Below, piece by piece: positions 3,150-16,709 of a stretch of 20,000 bases of DNA (the stretch's first letter is position 1; each line of letters begins with the position of its first letter). The translations under genes were made by a program, and so were the position numbers. Source of the stretch: an uncultured virus (IMG/VR IMGVR_UViG_3300047481_002482) (Duplodnaviria > Heunggongvirae > Uroviricota > Caudoviricetes); the IMG/VR virus record IMGVR_UViG_3300047481_002482. One strand, 5' to 3'. The notes below the pieces were generated by a model. The model was not told where the DNA came from and searched no databases. It saw only the letters and a list, made by a program, of their open reading frames with translations.

Positions 3150-3290
3150 TACGCCAGGCAACGAGGGCCAAGTCAGCGTACAATAAAAAGACGAACGGGC
3201 GGAGTCCAGGATGAAGTCTCTCTTGTGAGACGAAAGATTGGCAGGCAGGGGATGGCCCTGCGATATGGCAGCCACGAGAGTGGCTCTATA
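3150..3290 (+). ncRNA. Candidate structured RNA of unknown family
   Basis: Series of hairpins: TACGC/GCGTA (3150-3180), GTCTC/GAGAC (3216-3231), GCAGGG/CCCTGC (3245-3261), AGCCAC-GAGA-GTGGCT (3270-3285, GNRA loop). No credible ORF. Confidence 0.45.
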
Positions 3291-3395
3291 TTTGAACACA
3301 TTACTCTCAGCAACAACGAGCATCCGCGGAGAGGACACGATCAGGCTCGATTCGAATCGAGGCTGCACGGTCGCCGACTCAGTAGTGTGTTCAAA
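3291..3395 (+). ncRNA. Stem-closed tRNA-like element (unknown ncRNA)
   Basis: 15-bp closing stem TTTGAACACATTACT/AGTAGTGTGTTCAAA (one G-U); internal T-loop-like hairpin CTCGA-TTCGAA-TCGAG at 3346-3361. Confidence 0.5.
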
Positions 3396-3398
3396 CAT

Positions 3399-3487
3399 GG
3401 TTCCTGTTCCTCGCGATGGTCTGTAAAACCGTTGCCTTTAATATGCGGGGTGGCGGCAGTTAGGTTCGATTCCCTGATCATCCACCA
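3399..3487 (+). pseudogene. Atypical or chimeric tRNA-Tyr(GTA)-like element
   Basis: 8-bp anticodon stem with CTGTAAA loop (GTA 3423-25), GGTTCGATTCC T-loop and 3' ACCA; no D arm, and the acceptor strands do not match. Confidence 0.55.
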
Positions 3488-3494
3488 GTTTCAT

Positions 3495-3572
3495 GCACCG
3501 TTCGTCTAGCTGGTCAAGGACATCTCCCTTTCACGGAGAAGATCAGGGGTTCGAATCCCCTACGGTGTACCA
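3495..3572 (+). tRNA. tRNA-Glu(TTC)
   Basis: Full cloverleaf: GCACCGT/ACGGTGT acceptor, TCTCC-CTTTCAC-GGAGA anticodon arm, AGGGG-TTCGAAT-CCCCT, encoded CCA. Confidence 0.95.
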
Positions 3573-3578
3573 GTTCCG

Positions 3579-3948
3579 GGTGCCAAAGTGTTCATGGACG
3601 CACACTTTTAAAAAACTGTAAGCTAATTTTTAAGCTCTGCAGGACCCATTTCGTGATAAGTACCTGATGCCGCGCATACATCAACTGCTGACTCTCTTGC
3701 CCATGCCTCTGTTTGTCATAGGATTTATTCTGTCCCTGCTCTCTCCGCAGTCTATCTGCACACAGTTTCCCTATGAAATGACCATAATGTGGGCTGTAAT
3801 GGCCCTGGCACACACATCACCTTGGCTGTTATTCTATCAACAGCACTTTGCCCGGAATGCTTAGACAGCAGTGATAACTGCCCTGTAACACTGCCCAAGA
3901 GAGCCTGTCACGCTGGAAGAAGGGGATCGTTACCCCTTGGTACCGCCA
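3579..3948 (+). tRNA. Interrupted tRNA-Asp(GTC): 5' part 3579-3606, 3' part 3902-3948, 295-bp insert
   Basis: GGTGCCA(3579-85) pairs with TGGTACC(3938-44). D arm GTGT/GCAC is in the 5' part; the CTGTCAC anticodon loop, T arm, G73 and CCA are in the 3' part. Joined length is 75 nt. Confidence 0.8.
3667..3864 (+). CDS. Small membrane protein (65 aa) inside the tRNA-Asp insert
   Basis: Two hydrophobic stretches; preceded by TAAGTA (3657-62), which resembles the TAAATA promoter motif seen elsewhere in the window. Confidence 0.6.
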   Translation: MPRIHQLLTLLPMPLFVIGFILSLLSPQSICTQFPYEMTIMWAVMALAHTSPWLLFYQQHFARNA

Positions 3949-5737: not shown

Positions 5738-5896
5738 ATGAAACTTTGGGAAGCCACCATTAGACAACCAGGACCCGGTACCGCGGAATTCAAGGTCCGG
5801 ATTGGTGCCGAAAATGCTGAAGAAGCCCGGAGATTATTACAGCAACTACACGGACCAAGATCGGTACCTTATCTACCTCGACAGGTACCACAGTAA
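5738..5896 (+). CDS. Hypothetical protein (52 aa, MKLWEATIRQ...YLPRQVPQ)
   Basis: Starts 2 nt after the upstream stop and ends just before the TAAATA motif of the tmRNA gene. Not in the ORF track. Confidence 0.6.
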   Translation: MKLWEATIRQPGPGTAEFKVRIGAENAEEARRLLQQLHGPRSVPYLPRQVPQ

Positions 5897-5904
5897 TAAA
5901 TATC

Positions 5905-6273
5905 AGGATTGTTGTATGAAGCGAGTGGAACAACGGGCAAGACAGGGGTTCGATTCCCCTCTGGTCCACCATAAGGAGACTGACAATGCTAGAAACTCTA
6001 TTTTGGCTGGCGATAGGTGCTTTCATAGGTTGGAATTTCCCCCAACCCGAATTCGCAAAAAGCATCCAGGCTCGAGTGATAGATATGTTCAGGAAAAAAT
6101 CTTAGTCTCTTTATGATGGGCCAGCCATGGTATCGATTGACGGTCTATTACACGAGTGGACAACAGGTCAGGCGAAGGACCTAATCCTAGCAAAACCACA
6201 AACGCCAACGACAGCGTTTACGCAATGGCCGCTTGAGCCTGCTGAGGGTGGAAGCCCAAGAAACAGAACTTCC
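5905..6273 (+). ncRNA. ssrA: Circularly permuted (two-piece) tmRNA; acceptor piece ~5905-5971, coding piece 6118-~6273, tag ANDSVYAMAA
   Basis: T arm AGGGG-TTCGATT-CCCCT, then CTGGTCC-A-CCA (5961-71), which pairs with the downstream GGGCCAG (6118-24) including the G3-U70 Ala determinant. PK1-like GGTC/GACC plus AGG/CCT. Tag ORF 6204-6236. Confidence 0.92.
5986..6105 (+). CDS. Small membrane protein (39 aa, MLETLFWLAIGAFIGWNFPQPEFAKSIQARVIDMFRKKS) in the tmRNA intervening segment
   Basis: TAAGGAG RBS directly after the CCA; N-terminal TM helix and basic tail. Not in the ORF track. Confidence 0.7.
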   Translation: MLETLFWLAIGAFIGWNFPQPEFAKSIQARVIDMFRKKS

Positions 6274-6302
6274 AAAAGCCCGCTACCCGCGGGCTTTTTT
6301 TT
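6274..6302 (+). terminator. Intrinsic terminator after tmRNA
   Basis: AAAAGCCCGC-TACCC-GCGGGC followed by a T run. Confidence 0.9.
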
Positions 6303-6373
6303 GGCCGCGGTATGGGCCTACTAAATATCTCAAGCAGCGCCGGTATCATGCCGACGCCGGATCAAATCGACGC

Positions 6374-6466: not shown

Positions 6467-7375
6467 ATGATCCGTTTCTTTACGATGGTGTTATTATTCG
6501 CATTCTTTGTGCCCTCGCATGCAAAAACCATTCCAATAATCATACCATTCAGCGCAGGGGGCGTGACAGCTTTGACCTGGCAGATCATAGAACCCTATGC
6601 TAATCAAAAACTCAAACAAAACGGTATTGTTCTACGCACAGAGCATCTGCCCGGGGCTGGCGGAGGGATCGGAGCGGCTGCTGCCTTAAGGCGGCAAGAA
6701 GGTACCTTAGTTTTCACATCTACCAGTGTGGCATTGTTGCCATTGATCAATCCTGCTTTTGATTACCAATTAAGTGATTTTTCTCTGGTGAATCATGTGG
6801 GCCAATATCCATTGGTATTGTTTGCATCGACCCAAATTAACACGTGGCAAAATCTCTTGGTCAAATGCCGTAAAGGCCCAGTTAGTTTTGGCAACAGTGG
6901 ACATGGCAGCATGACGGCGGTGACCGGTGAGGCCATATTTAGATCAATGGGTTGTAAAAGCGAAATGATACCATATAAAAGTGCCAGCCAGGCCATGCCG
7001 GATTTGGTCCAAGGAGTGATAGATACAGTGGTAGATCATCCCACGTTGCCAAACCTGGACCTGGCGCGCACTGAGAGAATCAGACCTATCATGGTGTTAT
7101 GCCAAAACAGAATTTCTGTGCTTCCTCATGTACCTTGTCACGGAGAACTTGCCATAGACACCGATTTCGCTAACTGGCATGTGCTTTTGGCCAATCAACT
7201 CATTGATCGTAGAGATATGGAAATGGTAAAACATGCGGTCAATCAAACTTTGCAAGATCAAGAGGTGCGCAGAGCTCTGCAGAAAATGGGCATGAACAAC
7301 ATAGGCGGCACCGTACCGACTGACTTTTTATTACGAGAGCAGCATAAATTCAGACAGAGTTTAACAACTCAATGA
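6467..7375 (+). CDS. Bug/TctC family tripartite tricarboxylate transporter substrate-binding protein
   Basis: Signal peptide; motifs IIPFSAGG, PGAGGGIG, GNSGHGS and IPYKS...DLVQG typical of Bug/TctC; GGAG RBS. Confidence 0.88.
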   Translation: MIRFFTMVLLFAFFVPSHAKTIPIIIPFSAGGVTALTWQIIEPYANQKLKQNGIVLRTEHLPGAGGGIGAAAALRRQEGTLVFTSTSVALLPLINPAFDYQLSDFSLVNHVGQYPLVLFASTQINTWQNLLVKCRKGPVSFGNSGHGSMTAVTGEAIFRSMGCKSEMIPYKSASQAMPDLVQGVIDTVVDHPTLPNLDLARTERIRPIMVLCQNRISVLPHVPCHGELAIDTDFANWHVLLANQLIDRRDMEMVKHAVNQTLQDQEVRRALQKMGMNNIGGTVPTDFLLREQHKFRQSLTTQ

Positions 7376-8578: not shown

Positions 8579-9670
8579 ATGTCCGTAGAACATCGCACCG
8601 TTACCGCGGTTGGTGCCCGCCGAGCAGTGATGAAGTGTTTCGCCAAACGCCGCCCCATGTTCCTGTGGGGTCCTCCCGGTATTGGCAAGAGTGAAGTGGT
8701 AGCCCAGATCACCCGAGAACTAGGTGGCTTCATGATCGATCTACGACTGGGCCAGATGGATCCCACTGATATCCGGGGTATCCCGTTCTATAACAAAGAG
8801 CTGGGCAAGATGGACTGGGCTCCACCCATCGACTTGCCGGATGCAGACCTGGCCAGCCAGTATCCCATCGTGGTCTTGTTCATGGACGAAATGAACTCGG
8901 CGGCTCCGGCTGTGCAGGCTGCGGCTTACCAGCTGGTGCTTAACCGACGAATTGGCAAATATGTGCTGCCTGACAATGTTGTGATGGTGGCCGCCGGCAA
9001 CCGTGAATCGGACAAAGGCGTGACCTATCGCATGCCCACACCGCTAGCCAATCGTTTCGTCCACGTTGAGATGCGCGCGGATTTTGCTACCTGGCAAGAC
9101 TGGGCCGTGCTTAATGGCATCCACAAAGATGTGGTAGGCTATCTTTCGTTTGCCAAACAAGATCTCTATGACTTTGATGCTAAATCGTCAAGCCGTGCGT
9201 TCGCTACGCCACGATCGTGGTGTTTTGTAAGCGAACTGCTTGAAGACGAAGATCTAGACGATGTCACTGCCACTGATCTCATCGCTGGTACCATTGGCGA
9301 GGGTTTGGCAGTTAAATTCCAGGCCCATCGTCGGATTTCCGGCAAATTGCCACGGCCCGAAGATATACTGTCGGGCAAGGAGAAAGAACTGCAGGTCAAA
9401 GAAGTTTCAGCCATGTACAGCCTGGTGATCAGCCTGTGCTACGAGCTTAAAGATGCGCTAGAAGTGCGCAAGGTCACTGACAAAGAGTTCCACACCATGG
9501 CAGACAATTTCTTTGGCTACATGATGAAGAACTTCGAGACTGAGCTTGTGGTTATGGGTGCCCGTATCGCGCTCACGACCTACAACCTGCCGTTCCAACC
9601 TACCAAGCTCAAGAACTTCGACGAGTTCCATCAGCGGTACGGCAAGTACATCCTCCAAGCCAACTCTTAA
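8579..9670 (+). CDS. MoxR-like / dynein-related AAA+ ATPase
   Basis: Walker A GPPGIGKS, Walker B VLFMDE, AAGN sensor and LANRF arginine finger. Confidence 0.92.
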   Translation: MSVEHRTVTAVGARRAVMKCFAKRRPMFLWGPPGIGKSEVVAQITRELGGFMIDLRLGQMDPTDIRGIPFYNKELGKMDWAPPIDLPDADLASQYPIVVLFMDEMNSAAPAVQAAAYQLVLNRRIGKYVLPDNVVMVAAGNRESDKGVTYRMPTPLANRFVHVEMRADFATWQDWAVLNGIHKDVVGYLSFAKQDLYDFDAKSSSRAFATPRSWCFVSELLEDEDLDDVTATDLIAGTIGEGLAVKFQAHRRISGKLPRPEDILSGKEKELQVKEVSAMYSLVISLCYELKDALEVRKVTDKEFHTMADNFFGYMMKNFETELVVMGARIALTTYNLPFQPTKLKNFDEFHQRYGKYILQANS

Positions 9671-9712
9671 CTGTCAACAGGGTGGGATCCATACCGCAAG
9701 GGACATAGGGCT

Positions 9713-9952
9713 ATGTCGGATCCTGCCCTCCCCACATCCATAGTCCGGATCGAGTTCCGGCCATATAGCCATCAAGAAGTTCAAGATCTACTACGCGAGG
9801 TCACTCTGGATTTTGGTCCACCGGGCAGTCAGCGGAGATGGCAGTTTGTCACTGCCCAGACTCCGGATACCCAGACCAATCTCTGGATCGTGGATTTCCA
9901 TTTCCGCGACGCCAATGATGCTGTGATATTCGGCCTTAAGTATCAGAAATGA
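9713..9952 (+). CDS. Hypothetical protein (79 aa)
   Basis: Fills the gap after the ATPase; C-terminal [16 protein letters not shown] resembles small phage proteins. Confidence 0.6.
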
Positions 9953-9953
9953 T

Positions 9954-11114
9954 CTAGCGGAGCAATATTTTTTTAACCAATGGTAGGTTCTGTGGTAACA
10001 CGACTTCTCTACCATCCACTCTGCCATTGTTCCAGATTCTTAGGCAAGTATCAAAATTGTTCACTAACTCTTCCACGATTGTTTGCCGGAATTCATTGAA
10101 GAAATGCTGTTTGTTAAATAATAAGACAGGCAGCATGTCTTGGTACAAATCATCCAATTCTTTCCTAGACAGAGCACACAATTTTTCTATGATGTTTACA
10201 ATCATGTCTGATCTCCGATCGACATCGGCTACCGAATCATAGGATTCATCCCACCAACGATCAAAAGTTTTGAATCCATAACTGCGTAAATAAGCCAGAT
10301 TGCCCGGAGCCGCTGCCAATACAAAAGGTCTCAAAGCCACAATAGGTTTGAAAACTTTTTCTGTGAGATGTAATTTAGAGTGGTAAAAAACTGTCTCATT
10401 TACAACATGTACAAATGAATTTTGCCATAGTGCATAGGTTCGATGATTAAAACATGCACTACTGGTTCCATCTATCTCTACCTTGTCTACTATCAATGGC
10501 CATTGCTTCGCCATCTCTGCACATTGCGACATCAGTTTTTTATCATTGTCTGTGATCAAACTAGATGGACAATTGATTTCTTGTTGTAAATCGGATTGAT
10601 TGGCGTGTAAACTTATGTCGCCAAAAGGGTGCAGTTGTTTCAGCAAAAATCTGCATACCAGGGACATTCGATAGGCTCGAAAATTTCGTGACAGATGATT
10701 AAGGCTGCAGAATACCTTGGTTGGTTGTATGTTAGTGTCAATAAATCTGCTGTCCGCAAACCAATCAAGTGCTGCGAACCCATGATAGAAAAAGTACCAA
10801 TCCATCATTCCGTATTGTCGACAAATCTTTTTTTTGATGGCAGAATGCTCGCTGTTGGCAAGGATAGTAACAATTTTACTGGGTGATGTTCTCAAGAGGC
10901 TGAGATACAACACTCCAAGGTCGTCTGACCAGATTGGTTCCTGATCGAAATGATATAGCACATGGTGCTCCTGCTTGCACTCAGGTCTACCGCTGTATTG
11001 AAACTGACTAAGTCGGTCTTTTGTACCAAAAGGATAGTAATACCAAGTATCCAGACCCGATGGTTTGAGAAGATTACTGTGCAAAATCCAGTATAAATTT
11101 TCAATCGAAGGCAT
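9954..11114 (-). CDS. Glycosyltransferase-like phage protein (paralog of 18294-19337)
   Basis: C-terminal HVVNETVF...LHLTEKVFKPI...PF...GNLAYLRSYGFKTF...WDESYD, reminiscent of the GT10/GT-B nucleotide-sugar-binding region. Confidence 0.6.
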   Translation of the reverse strand: MPSIENLYWILHSNLLKPSGLDTWYYYPFGTKDRLSQFQYSGRPECKQEHHVLYHFDQEPIWSDDLGVLYLSLLRTSPSKIVTILANSEHSAIKKKICRQYGMMDWYFFYHGFAALDWFADSRFIDTNIQPTKVFCSLNHLSRNFRAYRMSLVCRFLLKQLHPFGDISLHANQSDLQQEINCPSSLITDNDKKLMSQCAEMAKQWPLIVDKVEIDGTSSACFNHRTYALWQNSFVHVVNETVFYHSKLHLTEKVFKPIVALRPFVLAAAPGNLAYLRSYGFKTFDRWWDESYDSVADVDRRSDMIVNIIEKLCALSRKELDDLYQDMLPVLLFNKQHFFNEFRQTIVEELVNNFDTCLRIWNNGRVDGREVVLPQNLPLVKKILLR

Positions 11115-11156
11115 ATCGTATGTATTTCACTTGATTCCTGCCTGCATTTATCCAGG

Positions 11157-11185
11157 TTGACCGGAAATTACTGAAATCGTATAAT
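11157..11185 (+). promoter_or_regulatory. Sigma70-type promoter
   Basis: TTGACC 11157-62, 17-bp spacer, TATAAT 11180-85; TAAGGAG RBS follows. Confidence 0.8.
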
Positions 11186-11206
11186 AATTAAAATTAAGGA
11201 GCAATC

Positions 11207-12490
11207 ATGACAACACCATCCGCAGTAGATACCGCCAATCGAGATGATGCCAAACGGTTCGCCAATCTCATCGGCCCTATGGATTCCAAATTAGATCGCG
11301 AAGTGCGCGAGATGCTGGTCACTGCCCGGGTGGGTATGTTGCTCCGTGCTTCGTTCTTTGGTAATCTGGCCACCCGACTACGACTGGTCAATGCAGATGA
11401 ATGGTGTGCCACGGCTGCTACCGATGGAAGGAATTTCTATTACAACAGCCGATTCATCAAGATGCTCAAACCCAAAGAGATCGAGTTCTTGTTTGGTCAT
11501 GAAGTGCTCCATTGTGTGTATGACCACTTTGGCCGCAGAGGTGAGCGTGACCCGCAGTTATGGAACATCGCCAACGATTTCTGCGTAAATGGTGATCTCA
11601 AGAAGCACCGTGTGGGTGAGTTTATCACTTCGGTGCCTTGCCTGTATGATCAAAAATACGAAGGCAAAAGCTCCGAAGAGATCTACGACATCTTGTACGA
11701 AAACGCCGAAAAGATCTCCATAGATGATCTCATCGATCGAGTGTTGGACGAGCATATGGGTGATGATGAAGGCGAAGGTGGAGCAGCGGGCGAAAACACA
11801 GGCAAAGGCAAAGGACGGCCGAAACTGTCTGACGAAGAACGCCAAAAGATCCGTGATGAGATCAAGGAAGCCATGCTGTCGGCGGCCCAGACATGTGATG
11901 CTGGTAATCTTCCAGCGGGGGTCAAACGACTGATACAAAACCTTACCGAACCCAAAATGAACTGGCTAGAATTGCTCCGCATGCAGTTAGAATCTACGAT
12001 CAAGAGTGACTACACCTGGTTGCGATCGAGCCGTAAGGGTTGGCATGTAGATGCAGTGATGCCAGGCATGAAGACCACCGATGCTATCGACATCGTTGTC
12101 GGCATAGATATGTCTGGTTCGATCACAGATGCCCAGGGCCGAGACTTCCTGGCCGAGGTCAAGGGTATCATGGAGGCCTTTGATTCATATCGTATCCACG
12201 TGGTATGCTTTGACACCGAAGTCTACAATCCTCAACAATTTGACAGTGACAATCTCGAAGATATAACGGGCTATGAACTCAAGGGCGGTGGTGGTACAGA
12301 TTTTGAGTGTGTATTCAACTATCTCAAAGACAACGACATCGAGCCCAAAAAACTGGTGATGTTCACGGATGGCTACCCATTTGGTGCCTGGGGAGATCCC
12401 AACTACGCGGACACGGTATGGATCATCCATGGCAATCCCAACCCCGATCCCCCGTTTGGTGTGTGGGCCAAGTACGGCGACACTGACTGA
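11207..12490 (+). CDS. DUF2201-type metallopeptidase with a VWA-like domain (MoxR partner)
   Basis: TAATDG, HEVLH (HExxH), WNIAND, MIDAS DMSGS, GGGGTDF and FTDG. Confidence 0.9.
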   Translation: MTTPSAVDTANRDDAKRFANLIGPMDSKLDREVREMLVTARVGMLLRASFFGNLATRLRLVNADEWCATAATDGRNFYYNSRFIKMLKPKEIEFLFGHEVLHCVYDHFGRRGERDPQLWNIANDFCVNGDLKKHRVGEFITSVPCLYDQKYEGKSSEEIYDILYENAEKISIDDLIDRVLDEHMGDDEGEGGAAGENTGKGKGRPKLSDEERQKIRDEIKEAMLSAAQTCDAGNLPAGVKRLIQNLTEPKMNWLELLRMQLESTIKSDYTWLRSSRKGWHVDAVMPGMKTTDAIDIVVGIDMSGSITDAQGRDFLAEVKGIMEAFDSYRIHVVCFDTEVYNPQQFDSDNLEDITGYELKGGGGTDFECVFNYLKDNDIEPKKLVMFTDGYPFGAWGDPNYADTVWIIHGNPNPDPPFGVWAKYGDTD

Positions 12491-13449: not shown

Positions 13450-13738
13450 TCATGATTTCCTGACGAGATGGGAAGAGATAGTCAACGCCGTAGACAAAGA
13501 TCACTGTCCAATCGCTGTGGTAAAAAAAGTAATCTTCCGTACCCATGGTGGACAAAAGACTATCAATCTCAAAAATCTGCGCAGGCAAGGCATAGATGAT
13601 GAAGGAATAGAGCAGGCAGTTAGTTCTTTCATCGAAAACAACGAACATCAGATCAAAAGCATGGAACTGGTGTTAGATGTGGAAGCAGTGGCCGGAATCA
13701 TACAACCAGAAACCGACAAATTGTTGAAAGACATGTGA
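13439..13738 (+). CDS. Hypothetical phage protein (99 aa)
   Basis: Overlaps both neighbours in operon fashion. Confidence 0.7.
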   Translation: MLLDHDFLTRWEEIVNAVDKDHCPIAVVKKVIFRTHGGQKTINLKNLRRQGIDDEGIEQAVSSFIENNEHQIKSMELVLDVEAVAGIIQPETDKLLKDM

Positions 13739-14421
13739 TGCATGTTCGCTTGGTTTCCTATTCAAGACCCACTGAGGGATTTGCCGATCACGGTATCACG
13801 GATGCGCAGGATCTCGTGGCCTTTTGCGCCCGTGTCAGCAACCCATCGAATCAGTTCAACACAGAGACATCAGAACGGCTCATCCGATACCTTGTACGAC
13901 ATCAGCACTGGTCACCCTTGGAGATGGTTTCGGCCTGCATGGAAGTCACCACCACCCGAGATATCGCCAGACAGATCTTGCGACATCGGTCTTTTTCTTT
14001 CCAAGAGTTCAGTCAGCGATACGCAAACCCTGTTCGAGGCCTTGAGTTCGAGCTTCGACCAGCGAGGCTGCAGGACACCACAGACCGACAGAATAGTGTG
14101 GAACTGAATCTCCGCGACCCAGAGCACAGAGAACTGTCTGACATATGGATTGAAAAACAACAAGATGTCATTAGAGCCGCTCGAGAAGCCTACAGTTGGG
14201 CTATCCTTAATGGCATAGCCAAGGAGCAGGCCCGCTGTGTGCTGCCGGAAGGAAACACGCAGAGCAGGCTCTACATGAACGGCACCTTACGATCGTGGGT
14301 ACATTTTATCGAGCTAAGGAGTGCCAATGGCACACAAAAAGAACACCAAGACATAGCCCGTGCTTGTGCTGAGGTCATAGCCACTGTGTTTCCTATGGCT
14401 ACCGAATTCGTAGGCGAATAG
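13738..14421 (+). CDS. thyX: FAD-dependent thymidylate synthase
   Basis: ThyX signature RHRSFSFQEFSQRY, plus HWSPLE, AKEQARCVLP and LRSWVHFIELR; start at GTG 13735 or ATG 13738. Confidence 0.97.
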   Translation: MHVRLVSYSRPTEGFADHGITDAQDLVAFCARVSNPSNQFNTETSERLIRYLVRHQHWSPLEMVSACMEVTTTRDIARQILRHRSFSFQEFSQRYANPVRGLEFELRPARLQDTTDRQNSVELNLRDPEHRELSDIWIEKQQDVIRAAREAYSWAILNGIAKEQARCVLPEGNTQSRLYMNGTLRSWVHFIELRSANGTQKEHQDIARACAEVIATVFPMATEFVGE

Positions 14422-14430
14422 ATCCTATCC

Positions 14431-14439
14431 TGCTATAAT
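14431..14439 (+). promoter_or_regulatory. Extended -10 promoter (probably leaderless transcript)
   Basis: TGCTATAAT lies 5 nt before ATG 14445; no RBS. Confidence 0.6.
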
Positions 14440-14444
14440 CAGGT

Positions 14445-14696
14445 ATGAAGATCAATTTCCATTCTTTTACCATGGGCGATGTTGATGATGTAGATATCTA
14501 TGCCGCCCAGCCCATCTATGAATGGCAACAGACTGATCATGGTCGATGGGTCATGGAAAACGCACACAATCTCACCTATCATACAGTGCCGGACCAAGCC
14601 TTGATGGGACATAGGGTAGTAATAAGAGGTGAGATCACAGATTCACGAAAAGTCACGGAGTATTATCTAAGATGGCCAAAACAACAAAAATACTAG
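14445..14696 (+). CDS. Hypothetical phage protein (83 aa)
   Basis: ORF directly after the promoter, overlapping the next gene. Confidence 0.7.
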   Translation: MKINFHSFTMGDVDDVDIYAAQPIYEWQQTDHGRWVMENAHNLTYHTVPDQALMGHRVVIRGEITDSRKVTEYYLRWPKQQKY

Positions 14697-15655
14697 TAAC
14701 AGGTGGACTCGGTCTTATCGGCCATAATGTGGTACAACGATTGCAAGCACAAGCACACGAGATCATCATCACGGATATATGCACCAACTATGGTATCGTG
14801 CCACAGAGCGAAATAGATTATCTTGCAGCGGAACGACGGAAGAAAATAGATCCTGCTACCAAGATCTATGACGTTGACATCGCAGATCAGGTAGGCATGG
14901 ACAATCTCCTGCGTAGCCATAGACCTCACACTGTGATACACATGGCCAGTTTTCCCAGGCAGAAAGTGGTCAATGCCGATCCAATGCTGGGCAGCAGGAC
15001 CATGAGCGAAGGACTACTGAATCTTTTGGAACTGTCAGCTCGCCACGGCGTGGATAGGTTTGTCTATATCTCAAGCAGCATGGTGTACGGTAATTTCGTC
15101 GATGATGTTCGCGAAGATGCTGAGTGTAGGCCACAAGGACAATACGGAATAATGAAATTGGCAGGAGAATGGCTGGTTCGTGACTACACCCGGAGAGGTC
15201 GGCTGGATCACGTGATCATCCGTCCCTCTGCTGTGTACGGTGAGCTAGATGTCGAAGATCGGGTGGTTTCGAAATTCATGTCAACGGCACTGCGAGATGG
15301 TGTGTTGGAAGTGAATGGAGCCCAAGAGACTTTAGATTTTACCTATGTTGATGATGCAGCTGATGGCATAGTGGCCGCTGCCGTGGTACCTGTGGCTCGT
15401 AACCAGACTTATAACATGACCAAGAGCCACTCATGGCGCTTGTTGGATGCAGCCAATCTAGCAGTGAAGATAGCCGGTCGTGGCACGGTAGAGGTACGGG
15501 ACCGAGATCTAGACTTTCCTAGCCGTGGTGCTCTAAACATTGATGCCGCACGACGAGATCTAGGATTCAATCCTAAAGTAGACATAGAAGAAGGATTTCA
15601 AAGGTATCATGACTGGCTTAAAGATAGCATTTACTGGTCTCCAAAAACAATATAA
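14672..15655 (+). CDS. NAD-dependent NDP-sugar epimerase/dehydratase (extended SDR)
   Basis: TGGLGLIG, SSSMVYG, YGIMK (YxxxK) and DFTYVDD. Confidence 0.93.
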   Translation: MAKTTKILVTGGLGLIGHNVVQRLQAQAHEIIITDICTNYGIVPQSEIDYLAAERRKKIDPATKIYDVDIADQVGMDNLLRSHRPHTVIHMASFPRQKVVNADPMLGSRTMSEGLLNLLELSARHGVDRFVYISSSMVYGNFVDDVREDAECRPQGQYGIMKLAGEWLVRDYTRRGRLDHVIIRPSAVYGELDVEDRVVSKFMSTALRDGVLEVNGAQETLDFTYVDDAADGIVAAAVVPVARNQTYNMTKSHSWRLLDAANLAVKIAGRGTVEVRDRDLDFPSRGALNIDAARRDLGFNPKVDIEEGFQRYHDWLKDSIYWSPKTI

Positions 15656-16709
15656 CAATCACCGATCTGAGATCTTGGATGCCACGGATGAGGTGCTTAG
15701 GTCGGGCCAACTCATGGATGGAAATTTTACCGCAGAGTTTGAAAACTGGCTGTCACGACGTAACGGTACCAAATATGCAGTGACCTGCCACTCGGGCACG
15801 CAGGCCCTGGAGATTATCGCCGCTTATTATGCCACTGAACGTGGTGCTCCCAATCCTCCCACTGTGTTGATACCTGCTGTCACCTATGTGGCCACTGCCA
15901 ACGCATTCATGCGCGCAGGCTGGGACGTGCATTTCGTTGATGTGGATGCCTTGGGTATCTTTGACATGCGAAGTATACCTGATGTGAGCTATCAGGCCAT
16001 GGTGCTGGTAGGACTGTATGGTGCCGCGATCACTCATATCGGCGATACCAAGATATGGCGTCAGACCGTGCTGCGCGATGGATTGGTCATAGAGGATGCC
16101 GCACAGCACTGGCTCTCCGGTGGATCTATCAGGATCGGTCAAGCGGCTGCCATAAGTTTTGATCCTATGAAGAATCTGGCTGCCTATGGCAACGGTGGCG
16201 CTGTTGTGACCAATGATGCTGATCTCTATAGGTACGCACAATCGATGCGCAACAACGGCAAACCCCATCATCACGATGCGGGTACCAATAGCAGGATGAG
16301 CGAGATAGACTGTGCCACCTTGCTGGTCAAAACTCGATATATCGATCAATGGCAACAGCGCAGAGGCAAGATAGCACAGTTTTGGATGGAAAAACTACAA
16401 ATACCAGGTCTGCGATGCCTTATCACGCGTGACAATTGTCACGATCATTCATATCACAAATTTGTGATAGATGTAGAGGCTCGCGACATCTTGCAGAAGA
16501 ATCTGGCCATACGAGGCATAGAGACACGTGTGCATTACGCACAGCCCTTGCATGAAATCGACATCTATCGGCAGTGGCCTGGACCTAATTTCCTTAGTTC
16601 AGCCTCTGCGCTGTGCCGCAGGGTGTTGAGCCTGCCTATCTACCCCGAACTCACCGACCTGCAGGTAGAATATATTGCGGATCAAGTACGCGACTGCGTG
16701 ATGAGTTGA
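15609..16709 (+). CDS. DegT/DnrJ/EryC1/StrS PLP-dependent sugar aminotransferase
   Basis: SGTQAL, IEDAAQ, SFDPMKNLAAYGNGG (PLP lysine) and LSLPIYP. Confidence 0.93.
   Translation: MTGLKIAFTGLQKQYNNHRSEILDATDEVLRSGQLMDGNFTAEFENWLSRRNGTKYAVTCHSGTQALEIIAAYYATERGAPNPPTVLIPAVTYVATANAFMRAGWDVHFVDVDALGIFDMRSIPDVSYQAMVLVGLYGAAITHIGDTKIWRQTVLRDGLVIEDAAQHWLSGGSIRIGQAAAISFDPMKNLAAYGNGGAVVTNDADLYRYAQSMRNNGKPHHHDAGTNSRMSEIDCATLLVKTRYIDQWQQRRGKIAQFWMEKLQIPGLRCLITRDNCHDHSYHKFVIDVEARDILQKNLAIRGIETRVHYAQPLHEIDIYRQWPGPNFLSSASALCRRVLSLPIYPELTDLQVEYIADQVRDCVMS

Follow-up and report, generated by a model that had tools for sequence, protein, structure and literature searches.

Permuted tmRNA genes are found in Beta- and Gammaproteobacteria, Alphaproteobacteria, cyanobacteria and aquatic phages, and in all of them the acceptor piece is encoded first, followed by a spacer and then by the coding piece. 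The literature on two-piece tmRNA processing assigns roles in it to RNase P and a 3' nuclease (PMC3985003). Two-piece tmRNAs are common in aquatic phages, and the paper on Melnitz, a phage of OM43, gives 53 two-piece genes called by ARAGORN among phage genomes (PMC9004378). A tmRNA database paper of 2025 records spacers with a tRNA-Ala gene or a repetitive element, as well as homing-endonuclease genes in tmRNA introns; the terms "ORF" and "open reading" do not occur in its main text, and a full-text search of the literature turned up no account of a protein gene inside a tmRNA spacer.

Open reading frames within excised segments of stable RNAs are nevertheless known from other systems. The intervening sequence of the Coxiella burnetii 23S rRNA carries an S23p ORF and is reported to be excised by RNase III and rapidly degraded, with an ORF that is apparently untranslated and in decay (PMC4990558). 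Homing-endonuclease genes nest in group I introns, including those of tmRNA genes (PMC11915505).

The locus described here lies in a stretch of 20,000 nucleotides from an uncultured virus (IMG/VR IMGVR_UViG_3300047481_002482), hereafter called the window. It has the usual order of acceptor piece, spacer and coding piece, and its spacer is stem-closed, with the same AAG...CTT and xGAT ends as in three bacterial permuted tmRNAs, but the bacterial spacers are only about 24-42 nt long, with no room for a gene, whereas that of the window has 146 nt. Like the Coxiella element, it is a stem-closed, ORF-holding segment of a stable-RNA precursor, with excision in the window deduced from tmRNA architecture; it differs in that tRNA-type processing is expected, the ribosome binding site is canonical and the frame is under strong purifying selection. 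Like the intron-nested genes, it places a protein gene in a part removed from the mature RNA. There is, however, no intron, removal would occur by end processing rather than splicing, and the product is a 39-residue membrane protein rather than a nuclease.

Two further kinds of system invite comparison. Dual-function RNAs such as SgrS/SgrT and RNAIII/hld supply a functional RNA and a small protein from one transcript, with the ORF in the mature RNA; the window ORF, unlike theirs, is confined to the portion that maturation removes. In mixed operons of tRNA and protein genes, such as E. coli tufB, genes lying side by side share a precursor and are separated by RNase P, whereas in the window the halves of a single RNA gene surround the protein gene, whose binding site lies in the processing helix. 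What is new here, within the searchable literature, is a selected protein gene in a tmRNA spacer.

The tmRNA gene of the window

In the window, ARAGORN identifies a permuted tmRNA (5879-6327) whose tag is ANDSVYAMAA. Two Rfam models match over their full length, RF04321 (tmRNA_permuted, model positions 1-213) with 118.4 bits against a cut-off of 47 and RF01850 (beta_tmRNA, model positions 1-331) with 103.9 bits against a cut-off of 84, and the Rfam alignment leaves about 138 bases without a model match between the CCA and the 5' acceptor strand. The elements follow one another in the permuted order, with the encoded CCA ahead of G1 (position 6118) and the tag (Table 1). The 7-bp acceptor stem pairs GGGCCAG with CTGGTCC and includes the alanine identity pair G3:U70 (G6120:U5965), and the tag frame runs through ANDSVYAMAA, with its hydrophobic ..AA tail, directly into a stop codon. 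No intron family, group I included, reaches the Rfam gathering threshold in the window.

Because the CCA ends at 5971 and the coding piece starts at G6118, the intervening segment has a length of 146 nt. An earlier reading of this DNA, made from the sequence alone, had given its span as 5971-6117; the end of that span stands, but position 5971 is the terminal A of the CCA, and the segment begins at 5972.

Table 1. Features of the permuted tmRNA gene and its spacer, in window coordinates.
Feature	Position	Strand	Basis or remark
Acceptor piece (3' half of tRNA-like domain)	5908..5971	+	Rfam, ARAGORN, sequence; homology to L007 begins at 5908
T-stem; T-loop	5944-5948/5956-5960; 5949-5955	+	within acceptor piece
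Acceptor 3' strand; discriminator A; encoded CCA	5961-5967; 5968; 5969-5971	+	
Intervening segment (146 nt), not part of the mature tmRNA	5972..6117	+	between encoded CCA and G1
Closing stem, 5' strand (includes AAGGAG, 5973-5978)	5972..5981	+	folds
39-codon small membrane protein gene	5986..6105	+	ORF list, relatives, invariant residues, dN/dS, AlphaFold2
Closing stem, 3' strand (overlaps last two stop-codon bases)	6104..6113	+	sequence, folds
TGAT leader before G1	6114..6117	+	folds; TGAT/TAAT leader also in most phage relatives
Coding piece	6118..6303	+	ARAGORN, Rfam; homology to L007 ends at 6303
5' acceptor strand; tag reading frame; 3' terminal hairpin with T-run	6118-6124; 6204-6236; ~6273-6300	+	

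The nearest relatives of the window are IMG/VR viral contigs, and its DNA occurs in freshwater metagenome runs; we take it to come from a freshwater phage. Among cultured phages, blastn returned no match to the tmRNA region, and no structural phage gene was seen within the window. Its auxiliary genes are of kinds typical of large phages, including ThyX, a MoxR-type ATPase with a VWA/DUF2201 partner, sugar-modifying enzymes and a phosphoesterase (phrog_547). An overlapping set of genes, at 24-1166, 6467-7375, 8579-12490 and 13735-16709, is unusual for a phage region: it comprises a sodium:solute symporter fragment, a TctC-type periplasmic receptor, the MoxR-type AAA ATPase with its DUF2201 metallopeptidase/VWA partner, ThyX, and a pair formed by an epimerase and a DegT-type aminotransferase.

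The spacer gene and its protein family

The spacer ORF starts with ATG, ends with TAG at 6103-6105, and is preceded at a distance of 7 nt by the Shine-Dalgarno sequence AAGGAG. Its 39-residue product is predicted to consist of one hydrophobic and one basic amphipathic helix. AlphaFold2, run on the alignment of relatives, places the helices at residues 2-17 and 21-38 on either side of a break at FPQ, with a mean pLDDT of 90, and the C-terminus is basic.

A database search with the frame, in which the query was the ORF plus one extra upstream codon, returned 93 related proteins of 29-61 residues (P0001-P0093) with E values from 6e-18 to 3e-5, and an exhaustive search found 87 relatives at E <= 0.001 among representatives at 50% identity. 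When the window protein was aligned with 39 of the 93, chosen so as to cover the range of identities, M1, G11, G15, W16, N17, P19, Q20, P21 and A24 proved invariant. At least 570 viral stretches encode a relative (570 of 600 candidates were confirmed, and 80 were retained), and so do 21 loci in species-representative genomes, mostly metagenome-assembled genomes of Methylococcales. The sole member from a cultured phage is a hypothetical protein of Pelagibacter phage Mosig, with 51% identity. This family of 36-48-residue phage proteins as yet has no name: neither Pfam nor NCBIfam gave a match, the best PHROGs hits (E = 0.016, then 0.19) were to families of unknown function, and the ESM Atlas returned unnamed clusters only.

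Since the same ORF occupies the same place in three further contigs and has these 93 database relatives, it goes beyond what chance would leave in a spacer. The sequence evidence, to which the substitution pattern discussed below belongs, marks it as a genuine, selected protein gene, and on this point the earlier reading, which had noticed a binding site and a complete 39-residue membrane-protein ORF in the segment to be excised, was right.

Nearly all members of the family lie outside tmRNAs. When ARAGORN was run on 101 loci, a tmRNA was found around the family gene at one of 80 viral loci (L030, which is the same contig as L007, the close relative of the window) and at none of 21 genome loci. 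The free-standing homologues have AAGGAG-type sites 6-8 nt before the ATG. What distinguishes the window gene from this norm is position: it has a binding site of its own, yet lies inside a tmRNA gene.

The neighbours of the free-standing genes vary. In a survey of neighbours at 39 loci, chosen to exclude duplicates, IscU/NifU_N was the next gene downstream at 11, the commonest arrangement in phages, and the other neighbours included a three-TM holin family (4 loci), glycoside hydrolase 19 (3), DUF4337 (3), Hc1 (3), superoxide dismutase (2), Bax1-I (2) and IscA (1). The phage loci that adjoin IscU (for example L009, L010 and L031) sometimes have IscA or superoxide dismutase upstream as well, and in two Methylococcales genome contigs (L019 and L021) the 39-residue gene lies just 3' of a Bax1-I (YccA-like) gene. 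Copies that stand free among such varied neighbours imply that the function of the family needs no tmRNA. Moreover, the family is far broader than its tmRNA-borne members, so the spacer gene most likely was captured from a pre-existing family rather than born in place.

Copies inside tmRNA genes

Further tmRNA-borne copies were sought with a pattern made up of the tmRNA 3' end (TCCACCA), 5-30 nt and the start of the family protein. Three were found besides that of the window, one in a viral contig (represented by L007, L030 and L232) and two in metagenome contigs (L241 and L237). Nine other pattern matches were dropped; they were 47-residue variants that followed a chance TCCACCA in an upstream coding gene, not tmRNAs. 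All four ORF-bearing tmRNAs have spacers of 146 nt. The L237 tmRNA is much diverged and scores 126.8 bits with Rfam; what sets it apart from the window tmRNA includes compensatory double changes, one at an acceptor-stem pair (A6:U to G:C) and two at T-stem pairs.

Substitutions within the ORF fall predominantly at synonymous sites. By the Nei-Gojobori method the window differs from L007 by 4 synonymous and 1 non-synonymous changes, from L241 by 2 and 1, and from L237 by 16.5 and 9.5 (pS 0.69, pN 0.10), and dN/dS is 0-0.13 in all six pairs of ORF-bearing copies, figures that rest on 39 codons and four sequences. This comparison of homologous spacers, which the sequence-only reading had proposed as a check, points to strong purifying selection on the ORF inside tmRNA genes. 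Contigs from four metagenome runs, belonging to four studies, join the CCA end to the ORF. Among the differences listed for them, the variants at 6012, 6039, 6042 and 6057 are third-position and synonymous, and those at 6079 and 6081 together change Ile32 to Leu. One contig, from run X6, has an extra A after 6093 and a T>A change at 6100, with the effect that its ORF ends at the TGA of the TGAT leader, which is the arrangement of a second tmRNA clade described below.

A working tmRNA is not the only way to read such a locus, as the insertion might have killed the tmRNA and left a protein gene flanked by RNA remnants. The 146-nt spacer is indeed the longest among those parsed, the others having 5-103 nt. 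That said, the Rfam scores of the window (118 bits) and L237 (127 bits) are at least as high as those of ORF-less relatives (about 108 bits), the G3:U70 pair, T-loop, CCA and tag frame are all intact, and the changes that separate the window from L237 are compensatory, so that decay of the tmRNA seems very improbable. We regard it as likely that the window belongs to a freshwater phage whose two-piece tmRNA gene works, and that a pre-existing small phage gene has come to occupy the spacer.

Window and L237 are identical at 113 of 146 spacer positions, compared with 43 of 62 and 80 of 139 in the two mature parts; the greater likeness of the spacer fits selection at the protein level, but would also fit lateral exchange of the spacer. 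A tree of mature tmRNAs (22 rows, leaving out L111, L126, L164, L178, L198 and L214, which have short or atypical spacers or parses) has a support of only 19/88 at the fork on which a sister relationship of the two ORF-bearing lineages depends, and given that value a single old capture looks the same as repeated capture or exchange. Homology between the window and L007 spans exactly 5908-6303 (1464-1860 in L007) and halts at both ends of the tmRNA gene; the ORF thus moves as part of a tmRNA module.

The closing stem

The sequence-only reading had described an 11-bp stem, 5971-5981 with 6104-6114, that extends the acceptor helix and buries the ribosome binding site, and the predicted folds agree. 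A5971-U5981 and A6104-U6114 form ten Watson-Crick pairs and one G.U pair. The leader in turn pairs with the ACCA end (U6114:A5971, G6115:C5970 and U6117:A5968), leaving the single mismatch of A6116 with C5969, across which the closing stem continues the acceptor helix. The fold of 5961-6124 has a predicted energy of -57 kcal/mol (z = -4.64), with none of 200 shuffled sequences equally stable, and the stem duplex alone contributes -14.7 kcal/mol. As for covariation, which had been suggested as a further check, window and L237 differ at four of the first ten stem positions, and all ten still pair.

To see how general the stem is, one can turn to a sample of 120 listed viral loci that show a tmRNA-type T-arm together with a CCA end, 21 of which ARAGORN calls permuted. 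When spacers are folded with their acceptor strands, most share one architecture: the acceptor stem is followed by a pair of A73 with base -1, one mismatch, pairs of C75 and A76 with bases -3 and -4 of the TGAT/TAAT leader, and then a long helix formed by the spacer ends. Among 20 distinct phage spacers of at least 30 nt, 16 pair at least nine of their first ten bases with their own 3' end at an offset of 4. The mean is 8.9 pairs with the own partner, compared with 6.8 with the partners of other sequences, a value that is high because AAAG...CTTT ends are common to many spacers. In the close relatives that lack the ORF (L001-L005 and L008), the spacer is a hairpin of 86 nt, and a stem of other sequence takes the same place. 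Seven of 151 Burkholderiales genomes lie above the cut-off, one of which (G029) contributed no sequence, and only three are strong (156-166 bits); the hairpin spacers of these three have AAG...CTT and xGAT ends.

By these comparisons the closing stem is a generic helix, common to the precursors of two-piece tmRNAs in phages and bacteria, and no adaptation to the gene. The notion of the stem as a device for the spacer gene has accordingly lost its footing, the helix being shared by ORF-less and bacterial relatives. Even the binding site asks for little that was not there before. In most sequences purines predominate in the 5' strand of the stem (GAAAG, AAAAG, TAAAG), and AAGGAG would be a small elaboration of this. 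The lock on the site comes along with the site itself, and need not have evolved for the gene. One sampled spacer, the 65-nt spacer of L171, looks ORF-less but has a stem starting with TAAGGG, followed by an ATG and a frame of 17 codons; this could be a coincidence, or could stand halfway between a simple hairpin and a spacer that codes.

A second clade with spacer ORFs

The four copies described above are not the only ORFs in phage tmRNA spacers. Two of the sampled loci, L181 and L209, contain hydrophobic ORFs of 28 and 30 codons led by Shine-Dalgarno sequences. A pattern taken from the 5' end of their coding pieces retrieved 23 loci (L243-L265), and the CCA is visible in 22. All 22 spacers hold an ATG-started membrane-peptide ORF of 26-30 hydrophobic codons that begins 7-12 nt after the CCA, and 21 of these ORFs end in the TGA of the leader. 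The spacers measure 95-103 nt and comprise 15 distinct sequences, and five of the loci were confirmed as permuted tmRNAs with Rfam. By blastn, the L209 tmRNA has only a 36-nt match in the T-arm, in mycobacteriophages.

Here too the reading frame leaves its mark on the substitutions. Across ten different 103-nt spacers, an in-frame pN/pS of 0.40 compares with 0.93 and 1.45 for the two remaining frames, these being pairwise sums that are phylogenetically non-independent, and comparisons of three 95-nt spacers give synonymous to non-synonymous counts of 9:5, 11:3 and 2:3 on 18 and 66 sites. The motif encoding the last 11 residues of the 30-residue peptide type was also searched for regardless of context; it turned up at 24 loci (L304-L327), and at every one a CCA lies 66-67 nt upstream and a tmRNA 5' end 4 nt downstream. 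This peptide is thus seen only within tmRNA spacers, whereas the 39-residue family is almost always free-standing. With the second clade, the suggestion of the earlier reading that the interiors of RNA genes may house small membrane genes gains support for tmRNA spacers.

The second clade also bears on the question of whether spacer frames are translated at all. The window spacer is strongly structured, as its z-score indicates, and constraint on RNA structure might by itself have held a frame open. Such constraint would not explain why substitutions cluster at synonymous sites, why the family exists outside tmRNAs with canonical binding sites, or why pN/pS in the second clade is reduced in frame but not out of frame, and an untranslated ORF is scarcely credible in the light of these patterns.

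Probable order of translation and maturation in the precursor

How, then, might a gene be expressed from within a tmRNA precursor? A promoter scan found no σ70-like promoter upstream of the window tmRNA, though the same scan also missed the 3' hairpin aligned by Rfam. With neither a promoter nor a terminator of its own within the module, the spacer gene would be transcribed in the tmRNA precursor. Promoters in front of tmRNA genes vary among the relatives. L237 has TTGACA-17-TATAGT directly upstream of its tmRNA (about 40 nt), and the ORF-less L001 and L227 likewise have consensus-like promoters (TTGACA-17-TAnnnT) right before theirs. No such promoter is seen in the window (5860-5907), L007 or L241, which may be read through from the upstream gene.

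Partition-function folds of transcripts starting at 5910 suggest when the binding site would be accessible. The unpaired probability of AAGGAG is 0.3-1.0 in transcripts that end at positions up to 6103, falls to 0.00 from 6117 onward and in the full precursor, and is at most 0.04 in the excised spacer alone; these values are thermodynamic, and kinetics, the helicase activity of the ribosome and proteins lie outside the model. Transcription reaches the 3' strand of the stem only some 130 nt past the binding site, so ribosomes would load only on the nascent transcript, during transcription. A ribosome that had translated the frame would terminate at the stop codon inside the stem 3' strand, 12 nt before the expected RNase P site; at that distance, the size of the ribosome footprint should make a terminating ribosome and processing mutually exclusive on any one molecule. 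Once the ribosome has left, the stem would form and block further initiation, and the formed stem would be a normal substrate for RNase P, cutting after 6117, and for 3' trimming. The spacer would then be thrown away with its binding site locked. A single transcript would thus probably serve as messenger first and as stable-RNA precursor afterwards, an order of translation and processing that we infer from the predicted folds.

The sequence-only reading had offered a different order, in which tmRNA maturation frees the 146-nt spacer as a mini-mRNA and the free fragment is what ribosomes translate. The excised fragment does carry the complete ORF, stop codon included, together with the binding site. 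This site is nevertheless predicted to be paired, as the folds of the spacer alone indicate, the ends of the fragment, a 14-nt leader and a 12-nt trailer, pair with each other, and in the nearest published analogue, that of Coxiella, the intervening sequence cut out of 23S rRNA is reported to be rapidly degraded (PMC4990558). Translation of the freed segment is therefore unlikely, and since its binding site is predicted to be locked, translation of the nascent precursor is the better reading.

The earlier reading had also envisaged a closer bond between the two products. Translation of the spacer gene and folding or processing of the tmRNA might compete by design, each regulating the other, with the protein acting in the same pathway. 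The placement of the stop codon 12 nt before the RNase P site and of the binding site inside the processing helix could be seen in this light, as could the ending of 21 of 22 second-clade ORFs in the leader TGA and the confinement of one peptide type to tmRNA spacers (24 of 24 loci). On the other hand, members of the 39-residue family stand alone in nearly all cases, among neighbours of many kinds, close tmRNA relatives manage without a spacer gene, and the closing stem is generic, all of which makes coupling by design rather doubtful. A related and still tentative possibility, to which we give somewhat more room, is that phage two-piece tmRNA precursors are programmed for two purposes, the spacer being a dedicated slot for small membrane proteins whose action is linked to ribosome rescue or to what becomes of tagged proteins at the membrane, with the stem as a timer that admits ribosomes only during synthesis of the transcript. 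It is kept open because the 30-residue peptide is found only in spacers (24 of 24 loci) and because chromosomal copies of the 39-residue family have a Bax1-I/YccA-type gene as neighbour at 2 of 39 loci.

The split tRNA-Asp gene

The window holds four tRNA genes (ARAGORN), and the sequence-only reading had drawn a parallel between the tmRNA spacer and a gene inside tRNA-Asp. An ORF within an RNA gene is indeed observed there, but the case is of a different kind. The tRNA-Asp gene is split into a 5' part (3579-3605) and a 3' part (3901-3948), which match the intact tRNA-Asp of L030 (2653-2727). The 295-nt insert between them (3606-3900) lies in the anticodon stem and contains a hydrophobic ORF of 65 codons (3667-3864). 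It bears no intron signature, and no group I intron or other RNA family matches it at E <= 1; the fold of the split tRNA is not significant (z = -1.5). Over its right 250 nt the insert shares about 90% identity with a locus that stands free in another phage (L297), and the ORF has three protein relatives and occurs at seven viral loci, none of them in a tRNA. A cassette was probably transplanted into this place, disrupting the tRNA.

Separately from the tmRNA, the window also shares homology with L007 in the tRNA-Glu/Asp region (3244-3605 and 3901-3948). The tRNA cluster precedes the tmRNA in the window, on its upstream side, but follows it in L007. With homology limited to the RNA genes, and their order swapped, these genes behave as mosaic modules.

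Significance

Genes for tmRNA are annotated as pure RNA and their spacers are regarded as trimmed junk, yet one such spacer holds a selected gene. Together with the peptide genes of the second clade, it indicates that one transcript can be both a messenger and the precursor of a stable RNA. One helix would serve here as a processing signal and as a translational lock, and the order of translation and maturation can be tested in a module of 400 bp. There are practical consequences for annotation as well, as gene callers that mask RNA genes will overlook such proteins, and RNA finders that penalise long insertions will overlook such tmRNAs. More generally, the locus provides a concrete example of how small genes gain expression in compact phage genomes.
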